Origin: a virus
Strand: one strand, 5' to 3'
DNA: 45,423 nt
Virus record (IMG/VR): IMGVR_UViG_3300033273_000525
Span: 1 to 45,423 of that record
Position numbers and translations under genes: made by a program. Positions 2,181-12,140 of the stretch are shown piece by piece. Each line of letters begins with the position of its first letter. Within the stretch, counting starts at the first letter, position 1. The notes under the pieces were generated by a model that saw only the letters and a program-made list of their open reading frames with translations, was not told the origin of the DNA and ran no database searches.

Positions 2181-2322
2181 GGTTTTTATACAGCTGGTAT
2201 AAGCCGCAGAAGCGTCCGTGGAAAGGGTGTTCCGGCATATATCGCAGGTCTGCTTGGTAAAGACGTTCCAGGTATTCCGTTCGTGCCTGTTGTTCTTTTA
2301 CGTCTTCCGCTCCGTAGGCCAT
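2149..2322 (-). CDS. Small hypothetical protein (57 aa), possibly leaderless
   Basis: Internal ATG at 2322 of track ORF 2149..2394 (MAYGAEDVKEQQARTEYLERLYQADL...). The longer version would begin upstream of a terminator. A -10 element lies 4 nt before this ATG. Confidence 0.4.
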   Translation of the reverse strand: MAYGAEDVKEQQARTEYLERLYQADLRYMPEHPFHGRFCGLYQLYKNHGTYGRKQST

Positions 2323-2326
2323 GCAA

Positions 2327-2354
2327 ATACTATTTCCCAAATTGATATTAACAA
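2327..2354 (-). promoter_or_regulatory. Sigma-70-type promoter candidate, TTGTTA-16 nt-TAGTAT
   Basis: Minus-strand -35 at 2354..2349 and -10 at 2332..2327. It follows the terminator at 2350..2386 directly. The ATG at 2322 lies about 5 nt past the -10. Confidence 0.4.
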
Positions 2355-2386
2355 GAAAAAGCCGCCGGTGCTCGAATACCGACGGC
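2350..2386 (-). terminator. Intrinsic terminator, minus-strand specific
   Basis: RNA GCCGUCGG-N10-CCGGCGGC followed by UUUUUCUUGU. The U-G wobble pair would be a C-A mismatch on the + strand. Confidence 0.6.
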
Positions 2387-2420
2387 CCATGCACCCCAAC
2401 CTTTTATAGGTTAGTACAAA

Positions 2421-2540
2421 TTACCGGGTGTAGCAAACACCTCGGTAACAAAGATTGGCGGTCTTTGCGATTGCGTTTTGAGCAGTTTGAAGTGCTTGCT
2501 TCTTTTGCTGCTGCTTTTGAATGAGGCTGAGAACGTTCAT
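2421..2540 (-). CDS. Possible 39-aa peptide between the two terminators
   Basis: ATG at 2540, TAA at 2421..2423. MNVLSLIQKQQQKKQALQTAQNAIAKTANLCYRGVCYTR. No SD sequence, so very uncertain. Confidence 0.2.
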   Translation of the reverse strand: MNVLSLIQKQQQKKQALQTAQNAIAKTANLCYRGVCYTR

Positions 2541-2603
2541 GGGTTTGGTAGCAACGGTTACTGAATAGCCTATATATCTTGTTGCAGAGGTGGTGTTCGT
2601 CCC

Positions 2604-2637
2604 AGCACAACAAAACCCCTAGCCGAAGCCAGGGGTT
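2604..2637 (-). terminator. Intrinsic terminator with cUUCGg tetraloop, minus-strand specific
   Basis: RNA AACCCCUGGC-UUCG-GCUAGGGGUU followed by UUGUUGUG. The G-U pair would be A-C on the + strand. Confidence 0.65.
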
Positions 2638-2919
2638 CTGAAGCTTGTTCTGGCCTGTAGTCAGACTCAACTGGCTTGTAACGGGCAACAGACCTAAACG
2701 GGCGCTGACTGCTACAAGAGAGTCGTGTGGTGGCTACAGGAGAGAACCAGATGCTGCACATAATGACCAGTCGAGCACGGCTAGTCAGTCCAACCGGTGA
2801 TGAAGCGGATGGTATGTGATCATTAGTGGACCTCCAGGTTTCCCCTTTGGCGCTAATGGCAATGGCGTCACAAGGGCACGAAGTCCGCCGCAACGAAATT
2901 GCTCAAAAAGCATAGCACA
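2638..2919 (-). ncRNA. Candidate structured RNA, or a long structured 3' UTR of the SSB-like gene
   Basis: No credible ORF. Nested helices at 2654-2660/2734-2740, 2664-2668/2720-2724 and 2675-2680/2713-2718. Ends at the terminator at 2604..2637. Confidence 0.3.
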
Positions 2920-3507
2920 TCAGTCAGCCTTGAATGGGTGGCCGCCAGTGAGAAGGCGGCTGATATCAAAGCCGTTGCTGACCGCTTCGTTCCAGGCAGC
3001 ATCCACTGCGGCTTGGCTGTCTTTCTTGCGGGGCACGGGGCGCAGGCCGTACATGTCAGGTGAGACGGTGGCTGCCTTCGTCATGATGAAGTCCCACTCG
3101 GTCATGTCGGCGTACTCCTCGACTTGAGAGATCTCGTCGAGTTCTTTTTGCAGACCTTTTTGGGTCATGCTCAGCACTTGAATGCGCTTGATGTCGAAGT
3201 TGTAGATCGGCATTGCAATCGCAAACTTCTGCGGCTCTTCCGTTCCATCGTCTTTGAGGCGGCGGCGGTAGTTAGCGCCCATCTCCTGCTCGATCTCGTC
3301 GGCAGATGCTTCAGCGGCAAAACGGAACGGCTTGCCTTTGCCGGTTTCGTCTTCGCCCCAGACCTCGAAGTAGCAGAGGGGTTCGTTCGCCAGAATTGCA
3401 AAACGCACTTGGCCGTCAGCCTTGATCTTGCTGGGGCTCAGGTAGTCGTTTCGGCTGCCACCGCCGCCTTTGAAGGCGTCACTGTGTTCCTTGGGGATGA
3501 AGCTCAT
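2920..3507 (-). CDS. Putative ssDNA-binding protein (T7 gp2.5 / DUF669-like); function tentative
   Basis: 195-aa clean ORF. Sits in a replication/recombination module with the nuclease. The family assignment comes from remembered sequence pattern only. Confidence 0.7.
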   Translation of the reverse strand: MSFIPKEHSDAFKGGGGSRNDYLSPSKIKADGQVRFAILANEPLCYFEVWGEDETGKGKPFRFAAEASADEIEQEMGANYRRRLKDDGTEEPQKFAIAMPIYNFDIKRIQVLSMTQKGLQKELDEISQVEEYADMTEWDFIMTKAATVSPDMYGLRPVPRKKDSQAAVDAAWNEAVSNGFDISRLLTGGHPFKAD

Positions 3508-3544: not shown

Positions 3545-3572
3545 AGTGTAGTAATTCTGCGGGGTTTGACAA
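3545..3572 (-). promoter_or_regulatory. Promoter candidate for the SSB operon, TTGTCA-16 nt-TACACT
   Basis: Minus-strand -35 at 3572..3567 and -10 at 3550..3545, about 38 nt upstream of the ATG at 3507. Confidence 0.4.
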
Positions 3573-3584
3573 CCTTCGTAGAAT

Positions 3585-3619
3585 AAAAAAACCCCCAGTG
3601 CCCACCACGGCAGCTGGGG
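3585..3619 (-). terminator. Terminator-like hairpin with U7 tract (minus-strand reading)
   Basis: 10-bp stem 3593-3602/3609-3619 with one bulge. A7 at 3585..3591 reads as U7 on the minus strand. Lies upstream of the SSB promoter, so possibly an insulator. Confidence 0.45.
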
Positions 3620-3672: not shown

Positions 3673-6087
3673 ATGTCGAAGCTTCCCGCCTTCGTTCGCT
3701 CACTTCCTGCTGCCTGGGCTACATGCCCCATCTACGGCAAAGGCGTCAAGCTTCCCTCCGGTAAAGAGGCTTGCGGCAAATCTCCTCTTGGTAAGACGCA
3801 CCACGAAGATTGGTCTCCCGCTGAGACGGCGCTGCATATTGAGCGTCACCCTGATGAGTTCAAAGCTGTTGGTGTCTTCACCGGACCACGCAGCAATGGC
3901 TTGGTCATCCTCGACATTGACGCCAACCTGGCTCAGCTGAAAAAGAAGTGGGGCAAAGACCTCAAGGCTGCGCCGGTTGTTGAGTCAACCAAGTTAAATG
4001 CAGCCAAGTACCTCTTTTACGTCCCACGCGAATACTGGGGTGAGGTTGATGGCCTGAGCCTTAGCGCCACCAAAGAAGGCTGGGAAGTTCTGTGGGGCCG
4101 TCAGGGGCTTGTAGGCGGCGCTTACAAGGATCAGGGTGTCTATACGCAGGAAGGCGACTTCGAGGCGATTCCAGAGGCTCCTGAGTGGCTTCTGGCATAT
4201 ATGAAGGAGTCTTTTCGCGGCAAGCAAAAGACTGGCGAAGGCAAAAAGGATCCGCGTTACGGGATGCGATCCACCGAGGAGCTTTGCCTGATCGTTAAAA
4301 ACTGCCTTTCGGTGATTCGGCCACAGGGTCGCGGTAGTGAAGACCAGTGGTGGCGCATTGGCGCAATGATCCACTCTGAGCTTCCTGGTGATGAGGGGCT
4401 CGACCTGTGGCGTGAGTGGTCGAAGCGGGACGATGAGTACCTCGATGACTGGGAAAACAACGATCCATGCGCTGATCGCTGGGAATCAGGTTTTAAGTCA
4501 GGCGGTGGGCTTGGTCTGGGCAGCTTGATTTCGCTGGCTGATCACTACGACCCAGATCGAAATCGGTTTGTCAATGATCAGGCGGCGAAGCAGGTCATTG
4601 ATGAGATCAATCAGATGGCGGTTTCGTTCCGTCAATCTGTGCTGCCGTTTGAGCAGGTTATTGAGAAGGCCAAGAAATACCTGGAGCTGGATAACCCGGC
4701 TGAGATGAATTACAACCTGAATAACTTGGCGCTCCAGGCTGGTTATCGGGACCAGCTTTCGCTGGAAAAATTGATTGTTGATCAGATCCAGTTCGAGGGG
4801 GCGAAGGGGTTAATGGGTGCTCAGGATCTGATGGACAGTGATCAGGAACGCAACTACCTGATTCCTGATGTGTTGCCGCATCCGTCAGTGGTGCTGATTT
4901 ATGGCGCTGGTGGCGATGGCAAGTCCATGTCGGCTTGGACTATTGCGAAACACATTGCGACTGGTGCTCCCTTCATCGTCAGGGGTAAACCCGTTCCAGT
5001 CCAGAAAGGTCCGGTGCTGCTGCTGAATGGTGATCAGCCGCTGGTGCAGCTCAAAGAGCAGCTTCAGGAGGTTGACTACCCGGTGGATAGCGAGACGTTC
5101 ATTCAGACCGACTGGGCGCTCCAGCGGTACGCGCAGTTCGTAAAGCTGATGCACGACATTCAGCCGAAGCTGGTGGTCATTGACTCGCTGATCGGCTGTA
5201 GCGGTGGCCGTGCCTTTGACGAGAACAAGTCGGACTTCGCTACGCCGCTGTACTGGCTGACGCGGAACAACGGTGTGCTGTTCCCGGCGACCACGATCCT
5301 GATCGTTCACCACGCCAATAAGCAGGGCGGCTTCAGGGGCACCTCAGCCATCCGTGACGCTGTGGATGAGACCTGGGCACTTAAGAAGCCCTCGAAGGAG
5401 CAGGTGGAGAAGGGCAACGCTCCAATGCACTCTCGGATCATCACCATCGAGAAGAGCCGCTCTGGGCGCTCTGGCACCTCTCTGATGATGCAGATGGAGG
5501 CTGACCTCAGCTTCTCCATCAGCGACTTCACCCCGGAGATCGACGCGAGCAACACCGCTCCAAGCGGGATTACGGATCGGGTGCTTCAGCGGTTGCGTGT
5601 GATCCACCCTCGAACCGCTACGCGCAGCGACCTCAACGCTGATCCGATTGTTGGCGGCAAGGTGGCGGCAATTCGTAAATCGCTCCAGCGCCTTGAGAAG
5701 CGTGGGTTGATTGAAGTGGTTGGTTCCGTTCCAGCCGGTGACGGGAGAAATACTTCTTATGCCTATAGAGCAGTTCTCGCGTGCGGGGACTTGCGAGAGA
5801 GTGTCCCAACAAAGCAAACCCCTTCTGCTGGAACGGATGAGGGATGGGACACCCCGGAAGAAAAAACGGAAGTGTCCCAGGTAGATAATGAAGCCCTTGG
5901 TTCGTCTGATCTGCATGGGACACCTCCTGAAAAAAATAAGCAGTGTCCCACCCAAGAACCTAGTGCTGAAGAGGGAAGTGCCTTAATGGGACAGCCTGAG
6001 CAATATCCCCGCGCGAGGGGCGAAGAGCGCACCAGCGATGAGTTGAATGCGTATCGGGACCAGGCTTGGGGGATGTGGGACGTATGA
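3673..6087 (+). CDS. Primase-polymerase / PriCT-2 / RepA-type (RecA-fold) helicase fusion
   Basis: 804 aa. AEP motif LVILDIDAN, PriCT-like WWRIGAMIHSE, Walker A GAGGDGKS, Walker B LVVIDSL. C-terminal wHTH-like region followed by an acidic tail. Confidence 0.9.
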   Translation: MSKLPAFVRSLPAAWATCPIYGKGVKLPSGKEACGKSPLGKTHHEDWSPAETALHIERHPDEFKAVGVFTGPRSNGLVILDIDANLAQLKKKWGKDLKAAPVVESTKLNAAKYLFYVPREYWGEVDGLSLSATKEGWEVLWGRQGLVGGAYKDQGVYTQEGDFEAIPEAPEWLLAYMKESFRGKQKTGEGKKDPRYGMRSTEELCLIVKNCLSVIRPQGRGSEDQWWRIGAMIHSELPGDEGLDLWREWSKRDDEYLDDWENNDPCADRWESGFKSGGGLGLGSLISLADHYDPDRNRFVNDQAAKQVIDEINQMAVSFRQSVLPFEQVIEKAKKYLELDNPAEMNYNLNNLALQAGYRDQLSLEKLIVDQIQFEGAKGLMGAQDLMDSDQERNYLIPDVLPHPSVVLIYGAGGDGKSMSAWTIAKHIATGAPFIVRGKPVPVQKGPVLLLNGDQPLVQLKEQLQEVDYPVDSETFIQTDWALQRYAQFVKLMHDIQPKLVVIDSLIGCSGGRAFDENKSDFATPLYWLTRNNGVLFPATTILIVHHANKQGGFRGTSAIRDAVDETWALKKPSKEQVEKGNAPMHSRIITIEKSRSGRSGTSLMMQMEADLSFSISDFTPEIDASNTAPSGITDRVLQRLRVIHPRTATRSDLNADPIVGGKVAAIRKSLQRLEKRGLIEVVGSVPAGDGRNTSYAYRAVLACGDLRESVPTKQTPSAGTDEGWDTPEEKTEVSQVDNEALGSSDLHGTPPEKNKQCPTQEPSAEEGSALMGQPEQYPRARGEERTSDELNAYRDQAWGMWDV

Positions 6088-8506: not shown

Positions 8507-10435
8507 ATGACTTACACAACGTATTTCGGTGTCGAGCATCTCGACAAAGTTTTTCATGCCACCACGATTGCGTTTGATACGGAAACGCTCCAGCTGCAGC
8601 CAGAGGTGGGCAAGCTTCGGTTGCTTCAGTTTGGTGCTGAGTCGACTAAGTCGATTGTTGTCATCGATTTGTTTGACTGCGATGAAGAGGACATGCACAA
8701 GCTTGACCTCTTCTTTGAAAATGGTGATCGGCACTGGATCGCGCACAATGCCGTGTTCGATTTGGCGTGGTTGCAAGAAAATGGCTTCAAACCGCATGGT
8801 CGTGCGTACTGCACCATGCTCGCCAGCAAGCTGCTCAATAACGGCATCCCAAACTTGAAGCACGGCTTAGTCCACTTAGCTAAGCGGTATCTCGACAAGG
8901 ACATTTCAAAGGAGCAGCAGGCGTCTGACTGGAGCGCACCAGTCCTCAGTAAAGAGCAGCTTGAATACGCTGCTAAAGATGTCGAGATCTTGCTGGAGCT
9001 TGATGCGATCCTGCCTGGGAAGCTTGCTGCGGCAGGCTTAGATCCGGCGTATTCGCTTGAGTGCAAGGCTCTTCCGGCAATGGCGCACATGTGGCGCACT
9101 GGCCTGCCGTGGAATCGTTCCAGCCTTGAACAACTTCGTAAGGACTATGAACATGACATTGCTGCGTTGGCAAAAGACTTTTTGTTTGAGCTTGATGCAG
9201 CTTTGCCAGAAGGTCACAAGCTTCCGAGAGAAAACTCCCGCCAGTTGGATTATCTCAAAGCGAAGGTCACGGAGATGGGACACGACGACGAGGACTATGA
9301 AAAATGGTATTCCGAGATTGAGTCTCTTGAGACGCAGCCCACGGTGTTCAACTTACGAGCAAAGGATGAGGGCAGCATCCGGCTTGGGACGAAGAAGTAC
9401 AAGGGGTTTAATCTCAGTTCACCAAAACAGCTTTTGGAGAAGTTCACGGTACTCCTTGGCGAGCAGCCTGTGGACAACAAAACGGGAAAACCTAGTGCTA
9501 GCCGCGTTGCGCTCCAGGCTTATGCGGCTGATCACCACGTTGTCCAGACCTACTTGGCTTGGAAGAAAGCTGAGAAACGCCGCCAAATGGTGGACTCAAT
9601 CTTTGAAAAGCTTGATCCCGATGGTTTTGTTCGTGCCAGCTATCTGCAGCTCGGAGCCGAAAGTGGCCGCATGTCCTGCATCAAACCCAACAACCAGCAA
9701 ATCCCCAGAGACGAAGACTTCCGTTCCTGTGTGGAAGCTCCTGATGGTTGGCTTCTTGTGGATGCTGATTTTGGTCAGATGGAACTTCGATTGGCTGCTG
9801 CGGTCGCGCAAGATGAACGCATGATTAAGGCGTTCCAGGACGGTGAAGATCTGCACACGGTTACTGCTGAAGCCATCGGTTGCAGTAGGCAGATTGCCAA
9901 GTCGGCAAACTTCGGTTTGTTGTACGGCAGTGGTGCGAACGGCTTACGCAACTATGCGGCTGGTGTTGGCGTCACCATGAGTTTGGATGAAGCTGCTGAG
10001 ATTCGTTCTCAGTGGCTCGACACGTACCAGGGCATTGCGGCGTGGCAGCAGGAAAATGGCCGCCTTGCGGAAGAAACTGAGGGCAACAATTTGGTGTCGA
10101 TCCGTATTCCGAAGTCGAACATGCGCCGGTTTTTGCCGGGTGACATGAATCGGCTGACGGTTAGGTGCAACACACCGATCCAGGGTGCTGGTGCGGCCAT
10201 TCTCAAATGCGCTCTTGGCAATTTGTGGACTGAGCTGGTGAAAGTTGGCGAGGTTGAGGCCAAGATTGCTGCTTGTGTCCATGACGAAATTTTGTTGCTC
10301 GTCAAGGAAGACAAGGCTGAGGAGTGGGCTGCGAAGCTAAAACGAATAATGGAGGACGCGGAAGCAATGTGGCTTGGCGATATTCCGCCGCTTGCTGAGC
10401 CGTCTATCGGTAAACGTTGGTCGGAGATTCACTGA
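8507..10435 (+). CDS. Family A DNA polymerase with 3'-5' exonuclease domain
   Basis: Exo motifs DTETLQL, HNAVFDLAWL and YAAKDV. Pol motif A DADFGQMELRLAA, motif B RQIAKSANFGLLYG, motif C CVHDEILL. Confidence 0.95.
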   Translation: MTYTTYFGVEHLDKVFHATTIAFDTETLQLQPEVGKLRLLQFGAESTKSIVVIDLFDCDEEDMHKLDLFFENGDRHWIAHNAVFDLAWLQENGFKPHGRAYCTMLASKLLNNGIPNLKHGLVHLAKRYLDKDISKEQQASDWSAPVLSKEQLEYAAKDVEILLELDAILPGKLAAAGLDPAYSLECKALPAMAHMWRTGLPWNRSSLEQLRKDYEHDIAALAKDFLFELDAALPEGHKLPRENSRQLDYLKAKVTEMGHDDEDYEKWYSEIESLETQPTVFNLRAKDEGSIRLGTKKYKGFNLSSPKQLLEKFTVLLGEQPVDNKTGKPSASRVALQAYAADHHVVQTYLAWKKAEKRRQMVDSIFEKLDPDGFVRASYLQLGAESGRMSCIKPNNQQIPRDEDFRSCVEAPDGWLLVDADFGQMELRLAAAVAQDERMIKAFQDGEDLHTVTAEAIGCSRQIAKSANFGLLYGSGANGLRNYAAGVGVTMSLDEAAEIRSQWLDTYQGIAAWQQENGRLAEETEGNNLVSIRIPKSNMRRFLPGDMNRLTVRCNTPIQGAGAAILKCALGNLWTELVKVGEVEAKIAACVHDEILLLVKEDKAEEWAAKLKRIMEDAEAMWLGDIPPLAEPSIGKRWSEIH

Positions 10436-11098: not shown

Positions 11099-11293
11099 AT
11101 GCGGTACGCTCTTTCGCTTCAAAACAACACGTTTTTAGCCGCTTGCTACGAAGCGACTGGCAGCGGGATTATGCTCACGACCAATGCTGAAGACGCTTGT
11201 TCCTATGTCACGCTTGAAAAAGCGTTGGCTGTGGCTCAGGCAGTTAGCAAAAGCATTGGTCAAGTACCTGCAGTGATTGAAGTCGGTTATTGA
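11099..11293 (+). CDS. Hypothetical protein (64 aa) directly upstream of the sigma factor
   Basis: ATG ORF. Its stop lies 1 nt before the sigma-factor ATG. Confidence 0.5.
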   Translation: MRYALSLQNNTFLAACYEATGSGIMLTTNAEDACSYVTLEKALAVAQAVSKSIGQVPAVIEVGY

Positions 11294-11294
11294 T

Positions 11295-12140
11295 ATGGAG
11301 AGTTTTAGTGCCTACTTAAGAGATATTGGTAGGTACCCACTGCTTACCAAAGACCAAGAAATTATCTTGGCGCGTCAGGTGCAAGATTGGATTCATGGTG
11401 AAAATCCTTCGCCGCGTGTTGTTAAGCGAGGGGAGCGTGCGTACCAGAAACTGATCAACTGCAATCTGCGCCTGGTGGTGTCGATTGCCAAGCGATATAC
11501 AAATAAGTGCAAGCGCAGTGAGCTGTCTGACCTTGTGCAGGAAGGCACTATGGGTCTTGCTCATGGCGTTAAAAAGTTCGATCCAGAGCGTGGTTATGCC
11601 CTTTCCACTTATGTGTACTGGTGGATTAGGCAAAGTATTACACGGTATTTGGCTACTTACGACCGTGTTATTCGGCTGCCGTCCCACGCAGTGGAGCTTC
11701 TGACTAAGCTGCGCAACTGGACGCCGATGTTTGAGAACACGCATGGCCGTAAACCGACCATTCAAGAGTGCGCAGAATTTTGCAAGATCAGCGCACCAAG
11801 GCTGCAGGAGTACCTCGACAGATCCAATGACGCGATAAGCCTCGATGCTCGCGTGAGTAGCACAGAAGATGACGTGTTGCTAATCGACAGTGTCTCTTCT
11901 GATGTCGATGTCTTTGACGATGTCTCTTGGGGTATCGACCTCGAAAAAGTGGAGAGCATTCTTTGCAAGCTGCAGCCCAGAGAAAGGTATGTCGTTGAGT
12001 GTTCCCTTGGCCTTGGTACGAATCCACCGATGACGTTCCAGGCAATCTCCAAGGAGTTAGGGATTTCGCGGGAGCGCACGCGCAACATCTTTCATGGCTC
12101 TGTCCGCAAGCTGCGGATGTACTTTCGCAAGGTTGACTGA
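11295..12140 (+). CDS. Sigma-70 family RNA polymerase sigma factor (regions 2, 3 and 4)
   Basis: Region 2 DLVQEGTMGLAHGVKKFDPERGYALSTYVYWWIRQSITRYL. Region 3 IRLPSHAVELL. Region 4.2 TFQAISKELGISRERTRNIFHGSVRKLR. Confidence 0.9.
   Translation: MESFSAYLRDIGRYPLLTKDQEIILARQVQDWIHGENPSPRVVKRGERAYQKLINCNLRLVVSIAKRYTNKCKRSELSDLVQEGTMGLAHGVKKFDPERGYALSTYVYWWIRQSITRYLATYDRVIRLPSHAVELLTKLRNWTPMFENTHGRKPTIQECAEFCKISAPRLQEYLDRSNDAISLDARVSSTEDDVLLIDSVSSDVDVFDDVSWGIDLEKVESILCKLQPRERYVVECSLGLGTNPPMTFQAISKELGISRERTRNIFHGSVRKLRMYFRKVD

Follow-up and report, generated by a model that had tools for sequence, protein, structure and literature searches.

A Conserved Structured RNA behind the SSB-Like Gene of a Probable Cyanosiphovirus: A Candidate Accessory Small-RNA Gene in a Variable Slot

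The window, meaning the whole 45,423-nt stretch of DNA analyzed here (positions 1 to 45,423 of IMG/VR record IMGVR_UViG_3300033273_000525), has the look of a complete or nearly complete tailed-phage genome of 45.4 kb. Besides the genes listed in Table 1, it encodes an endolysin, tail proteins, a major head protein, a portal and a large terminase. A BLAST search of the locus against cultured phage genomes gave no close cultured phage at the DNA level, and the SSB-like protein had no match in these genomes either. The family-A DNA polymerase matches cultured phages at 25% identity only. The capsid protein is nearest to that of Marine virus AG-345-A17 (48%), cyanophage S-2L (41%) and Prochlorococcus/Synechococcus siphoviruses. 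For the sigma factor, the nearest relatives are in the Synechococcus phages S-CBS3 and S-CBS1 (38%), and it also matches a cyanobacterial RpoD-like NCBIfam model. TARA Oceans is the source of one homologous contig. Because of this contig and of the capsid and sigma factor affinities, the host is likely a marine or estuarine cyanobacterium, and an uncultured cyanosiphovirus is the probable identity of the phage. Metagenome-assembled genomes (MAGs) of Planctomycetota, Saprospirales and Limnobacter include contigs of this group of phages (L078, i.e., contig JAPOKD010000065.1 of the Planctomycetota MAG, and also P0025 and P0043); this probably reflects mis-binned viral contigs and not the host.

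The gene from which the studied stretch departs encodes a 195-aa protein without a Pfam or NCBIfam match. Its AlphaFold2 model (pLDDT 86) has structural matches in BFVD that include phage proteins named SSB, D11 and DNA-binding; in the PDB, the matches are weak and limited to the OB folds of RPA and BRCA2. On this model, the SSB label is plausible and weakly supported. Upstream of the gene, a sigma-70-like promoter, TTGTCA-16-TACACT, is visible at 3545-3600 (minus strand). It is preceded by a terminator-like GGGGG-plus-T-run, within the intergenic region from which the SSB-like and PrimPol-helicase genes diverge.

Table 1. Features of the window named in the text; positions refer to the window.
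Feature	Position	Strand	Remarks
PD-(D/E)XK exonuclease gene	2034-1228	-	
Intrinsic terminator 2	2388-2350	-	stem 2388-2359 plus U tract; ends the transcript of the 39-aa gene
39-aa protein gene	2540-2421	-	MNVLSLIQKQQQKKQALQTAQNAIAKTANLCYRGVCYTR; phrog_545, E = 6e-6
Intrinsic terminator 1	2640-2606	-	stem 2640-2611, UUCG loop 2627-2624, U tract 2615-2606; predicted RNA 3' end
Conserved linker	2646-2638	-	AAGCUUCAG (also given as AGCUUCAG)
P6	2747-2647	-	variable hairpin, here expanded to a ~100-nt arm holding three nested helices
Conserved tail	2756-2748	-	single-stranded; GCAGCAUCUG (also given as GGCAUCUGUU)
P5	2787-2764	-	optional hairpin, missing in short forms (~125 nt)
P4	2812-2790	-	invariant loop CUUCAUCAC at 2805-2797
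P3	2818-2813 with 2762-2757	-	encloses P4 and the optional P5
P2	2858-2821	-	hairpin stacked directly on P1
P1	2902-2859	-	long irregular hairpin
RNA core	2904-2748	-	strongly conserved in relatives; covariance model R1, 147.1 bits
Extended -10-like box	2917-2909	-	TGcTATGCT; begins 2 nt past the SSB-like stop codon (2922-2920)
SSB-like gene	3507-2920	-	195 aa; context
PrimPol-helicase gene	3673-6087	+	
Family-A DNA polymerase gene	8507-10435	+	
Sigma-70-type sigma factor gene	11277-12140	+	

The original prediction described the stretch at 2350-2919 as devoid of a credible ORF and proposed that it gives rise to one or two minus-strand non-coding RNAs, or to a structured 3' UTR of the SSB-like mRNA. 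Only the first half of this stretch is truly non-coding. For comparison, 36 related loci were gathered by scanning IMG/VR with the SSB-like and exonuclease proteins, and the inter-gene stretch was compared by BLASTN and MAFFT. The 160 nt right after the SSB-like stop (2904-2748) are strongly conserved among these relatives. The minus strand of 2904-2606 is a conserved structured RNA of ~300 nt, which in the minimal relatives is reduced to ~190 nt; the proposal of a structured RNA hence stands for the first unit and falls for the second, the mRNA of a small protein.

A covariance model, R1, was built from a hand-curated structure on 12 sequences. Applied to the window, it gives a single match of 147.1 bits (E = 1e-34), on the minus strand only. 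In the ~2 Mb of fetched loci, the scores of true homologues are 110-164 bits, whereas those of noise stay below 25 bits. The model recognizes 21 distinct homologues, located in related uncultured phage contigs. Standard pairs occupy 92.9% of the cells in the alignment of these 21 sequences, vs. 31-48% in slid controls. Eight pairs have changed on both sides (for example, CG/UA at 4-46, CG/UA at 50-83, UA/CG at 57-71 and CG/UA/UG at 92-152), a covariation behind which there are few independent events, as the family is narrow, with members 72-84% identical. A shuffle measure of further pair types on the same alignment was not above its control. The idea of a core more conserved than its flanks was rejected, the identities being 72-84% vs. 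72-90% for the flanking coding genes.

The strand of the RNA is fixed by the conserved G-U pairs of P1 together with U tracts found on the minus strand only: P1 keeps four such pairs, which would be C-A mismatches if read on the other strand. Hairpin P4 reads CCAUCCG-CUUCAUCAC-CGGNUGG and is invariant among the homologues. Genomes and metagenomes were scanned for the exact P4 19-mer; most hits were chance matches in coding DNA and were filtered out with the covariance model. One genuine genome match was obtained (the phage-like contig L078 of the Planctomycetota MAG), and the hit in a Synechococcus MAG (L090) turned out to be a chance match. Degenerate P1 patterns brought no further members among the IMG/VR viral contigs. 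A repeated UCAUCAC motif, considered as a protein-binding motif, occurs twice in short forms only and was dropped as a general feature.

Indels in the core break the frame (3 and 5 nt, plus one entire hairpin gained or lost) and are located at the hairpin tips. No reading frame is shared between the lineages: open frames switch and no start codon is conserved. Coding by the ORFs at 2785-2913 and 2570-2893 was rejected because of this switching and because the ATG of the window at 2913 is not kept in the relatives. The core RNA is non-coding. The original prediction had opposed compensatory base changes to a conserved ORF as the two outcomes to be expected in relatives; the core at 2904-2748 shows compensatory pairs and no conserved frame, whereas a conserved ORF is found at 2540-2421.

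An Rfam scan had also been proposed. With the 4227 models of Rfam 15, which include pRNA, glnA RNA, Downstream-peptide, the Yfr RNAs, 6S, ribozymes and GOLLD/ROOL, no match reached the gathering score anywhere in the window. When E values up to 10 were admitted for 2200-3100, only junk was returned; the best hit, rnk_pseudo with 23 bits vs. a threshold of 55, is driven by the terminator hairpin only. ARAGORN detected no tRNA or tmRNA gene in the window. The conserved structure, compensatory changes and lack of a conserved frame expected of a small-RNA gene are all present; the RNA is real and previously undescribed, represents a new family and probably has a gene of its own.

Within this RNA, an 87-nt arm of three nested helices (2654-2740) had been taken as its heart. 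The helices fold as claimed (-34.8 kcal/mol, z = -3.6), but the conserved part is upstream of them, at 2904-2748. All 15 distinct lineages (15/15) have a hairpin at the P6 position, with stems of at least six unrelated sequences (ACAG/CUGU, CAGG/CCUG, UAACGG/CCGUUA, CCUGUAGC/GCUACAGG, CCUAUAGC/GCUAUAGG and CCUACAG/CUGUAGG) and a length from 4 bp to ~125 nt. Expanded forms are carried by the window, L026/L224 and L240. In most relatives, the arm is absent or far shorter; it is absent in L001, L004, L005, L006, L024, L028, L036 and L049. Judging from these comparisons, the 87-nt arm is a lineage-specific expansion of P6 and the most dispensable part of the RNA.

Terminator 1 was correctly predicted to work on the minus strand only: the U tract is found on that strand alone, and the hairpin has a folding energy of -23.9 kcal/mol there vs. 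-14.0 on the plus strand (z = -4.6 vs. -2.1). Both it and terminator 2 have the build of intrinsic terminators, a GC-rich stem-loop with a U tract behind it on the strand that is transcribed. Terminator 1 is kept throughout the relatives, with a swapped stem in L209, and in L010 and L012, both without the RNA, it directly follows the SSB-like gene. Since the conserved core, P6 and the terminator are kept without a shared reading frame, the relevant transcript would be the one from P1 to terminator 1. The stem found at this position in L209 (2700-2795, minus strand of the locus) is unrelated, GGGUCUGCG...CGCAGGCCC, and carries its own U tract. Directly 3' of terminator 1, the motif UUGUUGUGCUGGGACGAACACCAC is present in the window (2596-2612, minus strand) and in most relatives; it stands ahead of the 39-aa gene, of which it may be a promoter or leader, and is duplicated in L286.

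In front of the RNA, the members share a box with the consensus TGnTAnnnT, the upstream TG being present in most of them. Within the hexamer, T1, A2 and T6 are invariant and positions 3-5 vary (TATGCT, TATTAT, TATTCT, TACACT, TACATT, TACTGT, TAATGT and TATTGT). The box always stands 6-7 variable nt ahead of the first paired base of P1. The direct upstream neighbor is the SSB-like gene in most loci, and the box is retained in four upstream contexts: the SSB-like gene, a KilA-N gene (L007), a Zn-ribbon ORF (L024) and a small ORF with a terminator (L198). The latter is an intrinsic terminator, GCCGCC-UCUAGG-GGCGGC followed by UUUGUUG, directly ahead of the -10 box (L198 1640-1665, minus strand of the locus), so close that the U tract and the TG of the extended -10 overlap. 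A sigma-70 consensus scan found no -35/-10 pair at the box, and the TGTGCTAT box is not enriched at other promoters of the window. Because its distance to the RNA is fixed across the four contexts, and because it stands behind a terminator in L198, the RNA probably has its own promoter, with a start at ~2904-2902. No terminator separates the SSB-like gene from the RNA in the window. Read-through from the SSB-like gene must therefore traverse the RNA there and likely covers it too, so that both kinds of transcript are to be expected.

The second half of the stretch, proposed as a second non-coding unit of ~220 nt, is the mRNA of the 39-aa protein. The 39-codon ORF, not counted as credible before, is a conserved protein gene lying outside the RNA: its 17 distinct variants, which include those of phages without the RNA, differ by conservative substitutions and in-frame indels of two codons. 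The protein has a match to Pfam DUF4278 (PF14105) that is a resemblance only, scoring 15-17 bits vs. a gathering score of 25.3 (E = 0.007-0.03) and covering only the C-terminal 20 profile positions with the LxYRGVxY motif (LCYRGVCY in the window). DUF4278 marks IF17/GifB-like glutamine-synthetase inactivating factors, and the DUF4278 genes of cyanobacteria are typically preceded by glutamine aptamers or riboswitches (PMC6212724). Yfr6 of Prochlorococcus MED4 was likewise first called a non-coding RNA and later found to contain a DUF4278 ORF (PMC6212724); the second unit resembles it as a small mRNA with a non-coding look that encodes a DUF4278-like peptide, the homology being indicated by the sub-threshold match only. 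With its annotation thus corrected, the tiny gene may be the phage version of a cyanobacterial peptide resembling the glutamine-synthetase inactivating factors, and its product may act as a phage-borne regulator of host nitrogen assimilation. Terminator 2 is minus-strand-specific as well (-18.4 vs. -13.2 kcal/mol, U tract on the minus strand only) and was also detected in the terminator consensus scan, with 11 pairs, 7 of them GC. At the same site, the relatives have stem-plus-U-tract terminators of other sequence.

The RNA is missing in L010, L011 and L012, despite SSB-like proteins with an identity of 91-92%. It is also missing in more distant SSB-like relatives (52-59% identity), namely L286-L290, and in a 67-kb contig. 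KilA-N, HNH and small Zn-ribbon genes likewise come and go in the slot that separates the SSB-like gene from the exonuclease. Since close relatives do without the RNA and the slot exchanges other genes, comparison of the loci shows the RNA to be an accessory cassette. It is not tied to its small neighbor either: L036 has the RNA without the 39-aa gene, inserts of 170-700 nt part the two in L198, L028, L242 and L221, and the gene occurs without the RNA in L010-L012, L286 and L289. Because the two are separable in these loci, the RNA is probably not a cis-regulator of one gene. In the same mosaic hot spot, insertions of KilA-N and HNH endonuclease genes are located at 5743-6516 of L007, 4540-5433 of L010 and 606-1061 of L198.

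We consider it moderately probable that 2904-2606 on the minus strand is an accessory phage small-RNA gene with its own extended -10 promoter and terminator 1, whose product acts in trans. Host RNA polymerase would start at ~2904-2902 from the extended -10, just past the SSB-like stop, and would stop at the intrinsic terminator 1; read-through transcripts of the SSB-like gene would include the RNA too. The transcript is predicted to fold into P1, P2, P3 around P4 and the optional P5, the variable P6 and the terminator, and it would work in trans during infection. Contact with a host factor would be made by its exposed invariant parts, the P4 loop CUUCAUCAC, the tail GGCAUCUGUU and the linker AGCUUCAG; this factor may be a host RNA (regulatory or sponge sRNA) or a host protein, the phage RNA serving as a decoy in the latter case. 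A trans-acting regulatory or decoy RNA is our best guess, inferred from the predicted early-type promoter, the compact multi-helix fold, the invariant hairpin, the exposed conserved segments and the moron-like distribution. Antisense targets of the P4 loop, the tail and the linker within the phage itself were not found above background.

In enterobacteria, type I 3'-UTR-derived sRNAs, such as DapZ and MicL, have their own promoter at or within the end of a coding sequence and share the terminator of the mRNA. The gene arrangement described here is similar: an sRNA gene would be nested 3' of a protein gene, with read-through and independent transcripts coexisting, the promoter being predicted in our case. 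There is no relation in sequence or structure, however, and the phage RNA, with six helices in 190-300 nt, has much more structure. Also unlike DapZ and MicL, it is phage-encoded and movable as a cassette, and it has no known Hfq-type seed or target.

Whether the RNA is a separate transcript depends on how the proximity to the SSB-like gene is read. In the window and in most relatives, the element starts 16 nt past the stop codon with no intervening terminator, it uses the very terminator that ends the SSB-like gene in relatives without the element, and no -35 box was found. All this would suit a structured 3' UTR of the SSB-like mRNA that acts in cis without a separate transcript, for instance by protecting the mRNA from 3' exonucleases or RNase E or as a feedback binding site for the SSB-like protein, or an sRNA released only by processing. 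The element with its TAnnnT box is nevertheless also found behind the KilA-N gene of L007, the Zn-ribbon ORF of L024 and the intrinsic terminator of L198, and relatives with 91-92% identical SSB-like proteins manage without it. We regard the 3' UTR as unlikely, and these contexts lead us to favor a separate transcript over a plain 3' UTR. A riboswitch-like leader, in which the core is the aptamer, terminator 1 the expression platform and the 39-aa gene the target reached by read-through, is very unlikely. The order of box, fold, terminator and small ORF is indeed present in ~11 of the 17 distinct loci, and the weak DUF4278 match of the small protein recalls the DUF4278 genes typically located behind glutamine aptamers (PMC6212724). 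Like the glutamine riboswitches (glnA RNA and Downstream-peptide), the RNA usually lies directly upstream of a tiny DUF4278-like ORF in a setting of cyanobacterial affinities. Neither aptamer model matches, however, even at E values up to 10, and the RNA is three times larger than these riboswitches, is followed by a variable hairpin and a strong terminator, and can be separated genetically from the ORF. P6, from 4 bp to 125 nt, parts the core from the terminator; no conserved alternative or anti-terminator pairing with the terminator was seen on inspection of the alignment; L010 and L012 have terminator 1 but not the core; and the RNA is found without the ORF and vice versa, with a different downstream gene or none in several loci. 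The features of a riboswitch with a terminator platform are thus not what is found.

The conserved element could also act as DNA: the PrimPol-helicase replisome could use it as a structured single-strand initiation or origin signal, or it could be a recombination or packaging site. It sits in the replication/recombination module, with the SSB-like gene on one side and the exonuclease on the other, near the divergent PrimPol-helicase gene, and folded single-stranded DNA tolerates G-T wobbles. Such a role is extremely improbable, as a promoter-like box and an intrinsic terminator flank the element on the same strand, close relatives with the same replication genes lack it, neither iterons nor an AT-rich tract are present, and it is the helices of one strand that the compensatory changes maintain. 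That the element has no function, its conservation stemming from recent common ancestry of a decaying gene or of a mobile-insertion remnant, is highly improbable as well. The family is narrow (72-84% identity), and the core is conserved no better than the neighboring genes, as this explanation would have it. Yet, its neutral intergenic neighbors, i.e., the spacer after the -10 box, the stems and loops of P6 and the sequence behind the terminator, can no longer be aligned, whereas invariant blocks and compensatory pairs persist in the core, and the frame-breaking indels exclude a decaying ORF under selection.

The reading as a trans-acting small-RNA gene would place the RNA among the phage-borne, covarying RNAs without coding capacity, like phi29 pRNA (RF00044), GOLLD/ROOL and the candidates of Fremin et al., which, as here, stem from comparative analysis and uncultured IMG/VR contigs; 10,006 candidate structured RNAs of viruses and phages have been listed in that study (Fremin et al. 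2023, PMC10690425). The RNA is much smaller than GOLLD/ROOL, and no Rfam model matches it. Given the ordinary terminase and portal of this phage, a packaging role like that of pRNA is not expected. A larger claim, which we hold to be quite unlikely, is that the RNA founds a new class of protein- or RNA-sequestering riboregulators for host takeover by cyanophages. It could then serve as a decoy whose target is a host RNA-binding protein, nuclease or defense sensor; alternatively, as a new ligand-sensing RNA, it could reprogram the nitrogen metabolism of the host together with the adjacent IF17-like peptide. The invariant P4 would be the recognition element.

To our knowledge, few structured phage RNAs have defined ends and good comparative support, and almost none have been characterized in cyanophages. 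The present compact cassette is found in some close relatives and missing from others, much as protein morons are, and it occupies a hot spot where KilA-N and HNH genes are exchanged too. This moron-like pattern points to a role in host interaction or anti-defense.

The slot behind the SSB-like gene holds other material in L287 (4583-4812) and also in L288: a different ORF-free stretch of ~230 nt with an intrinsic terminator at its end. The SSB-like protein of L287 is 59% identical, and R1 does not match the stretch, whose fold has a z of -1.9 only. An RNA cassette unrelated to the present one may lie here.
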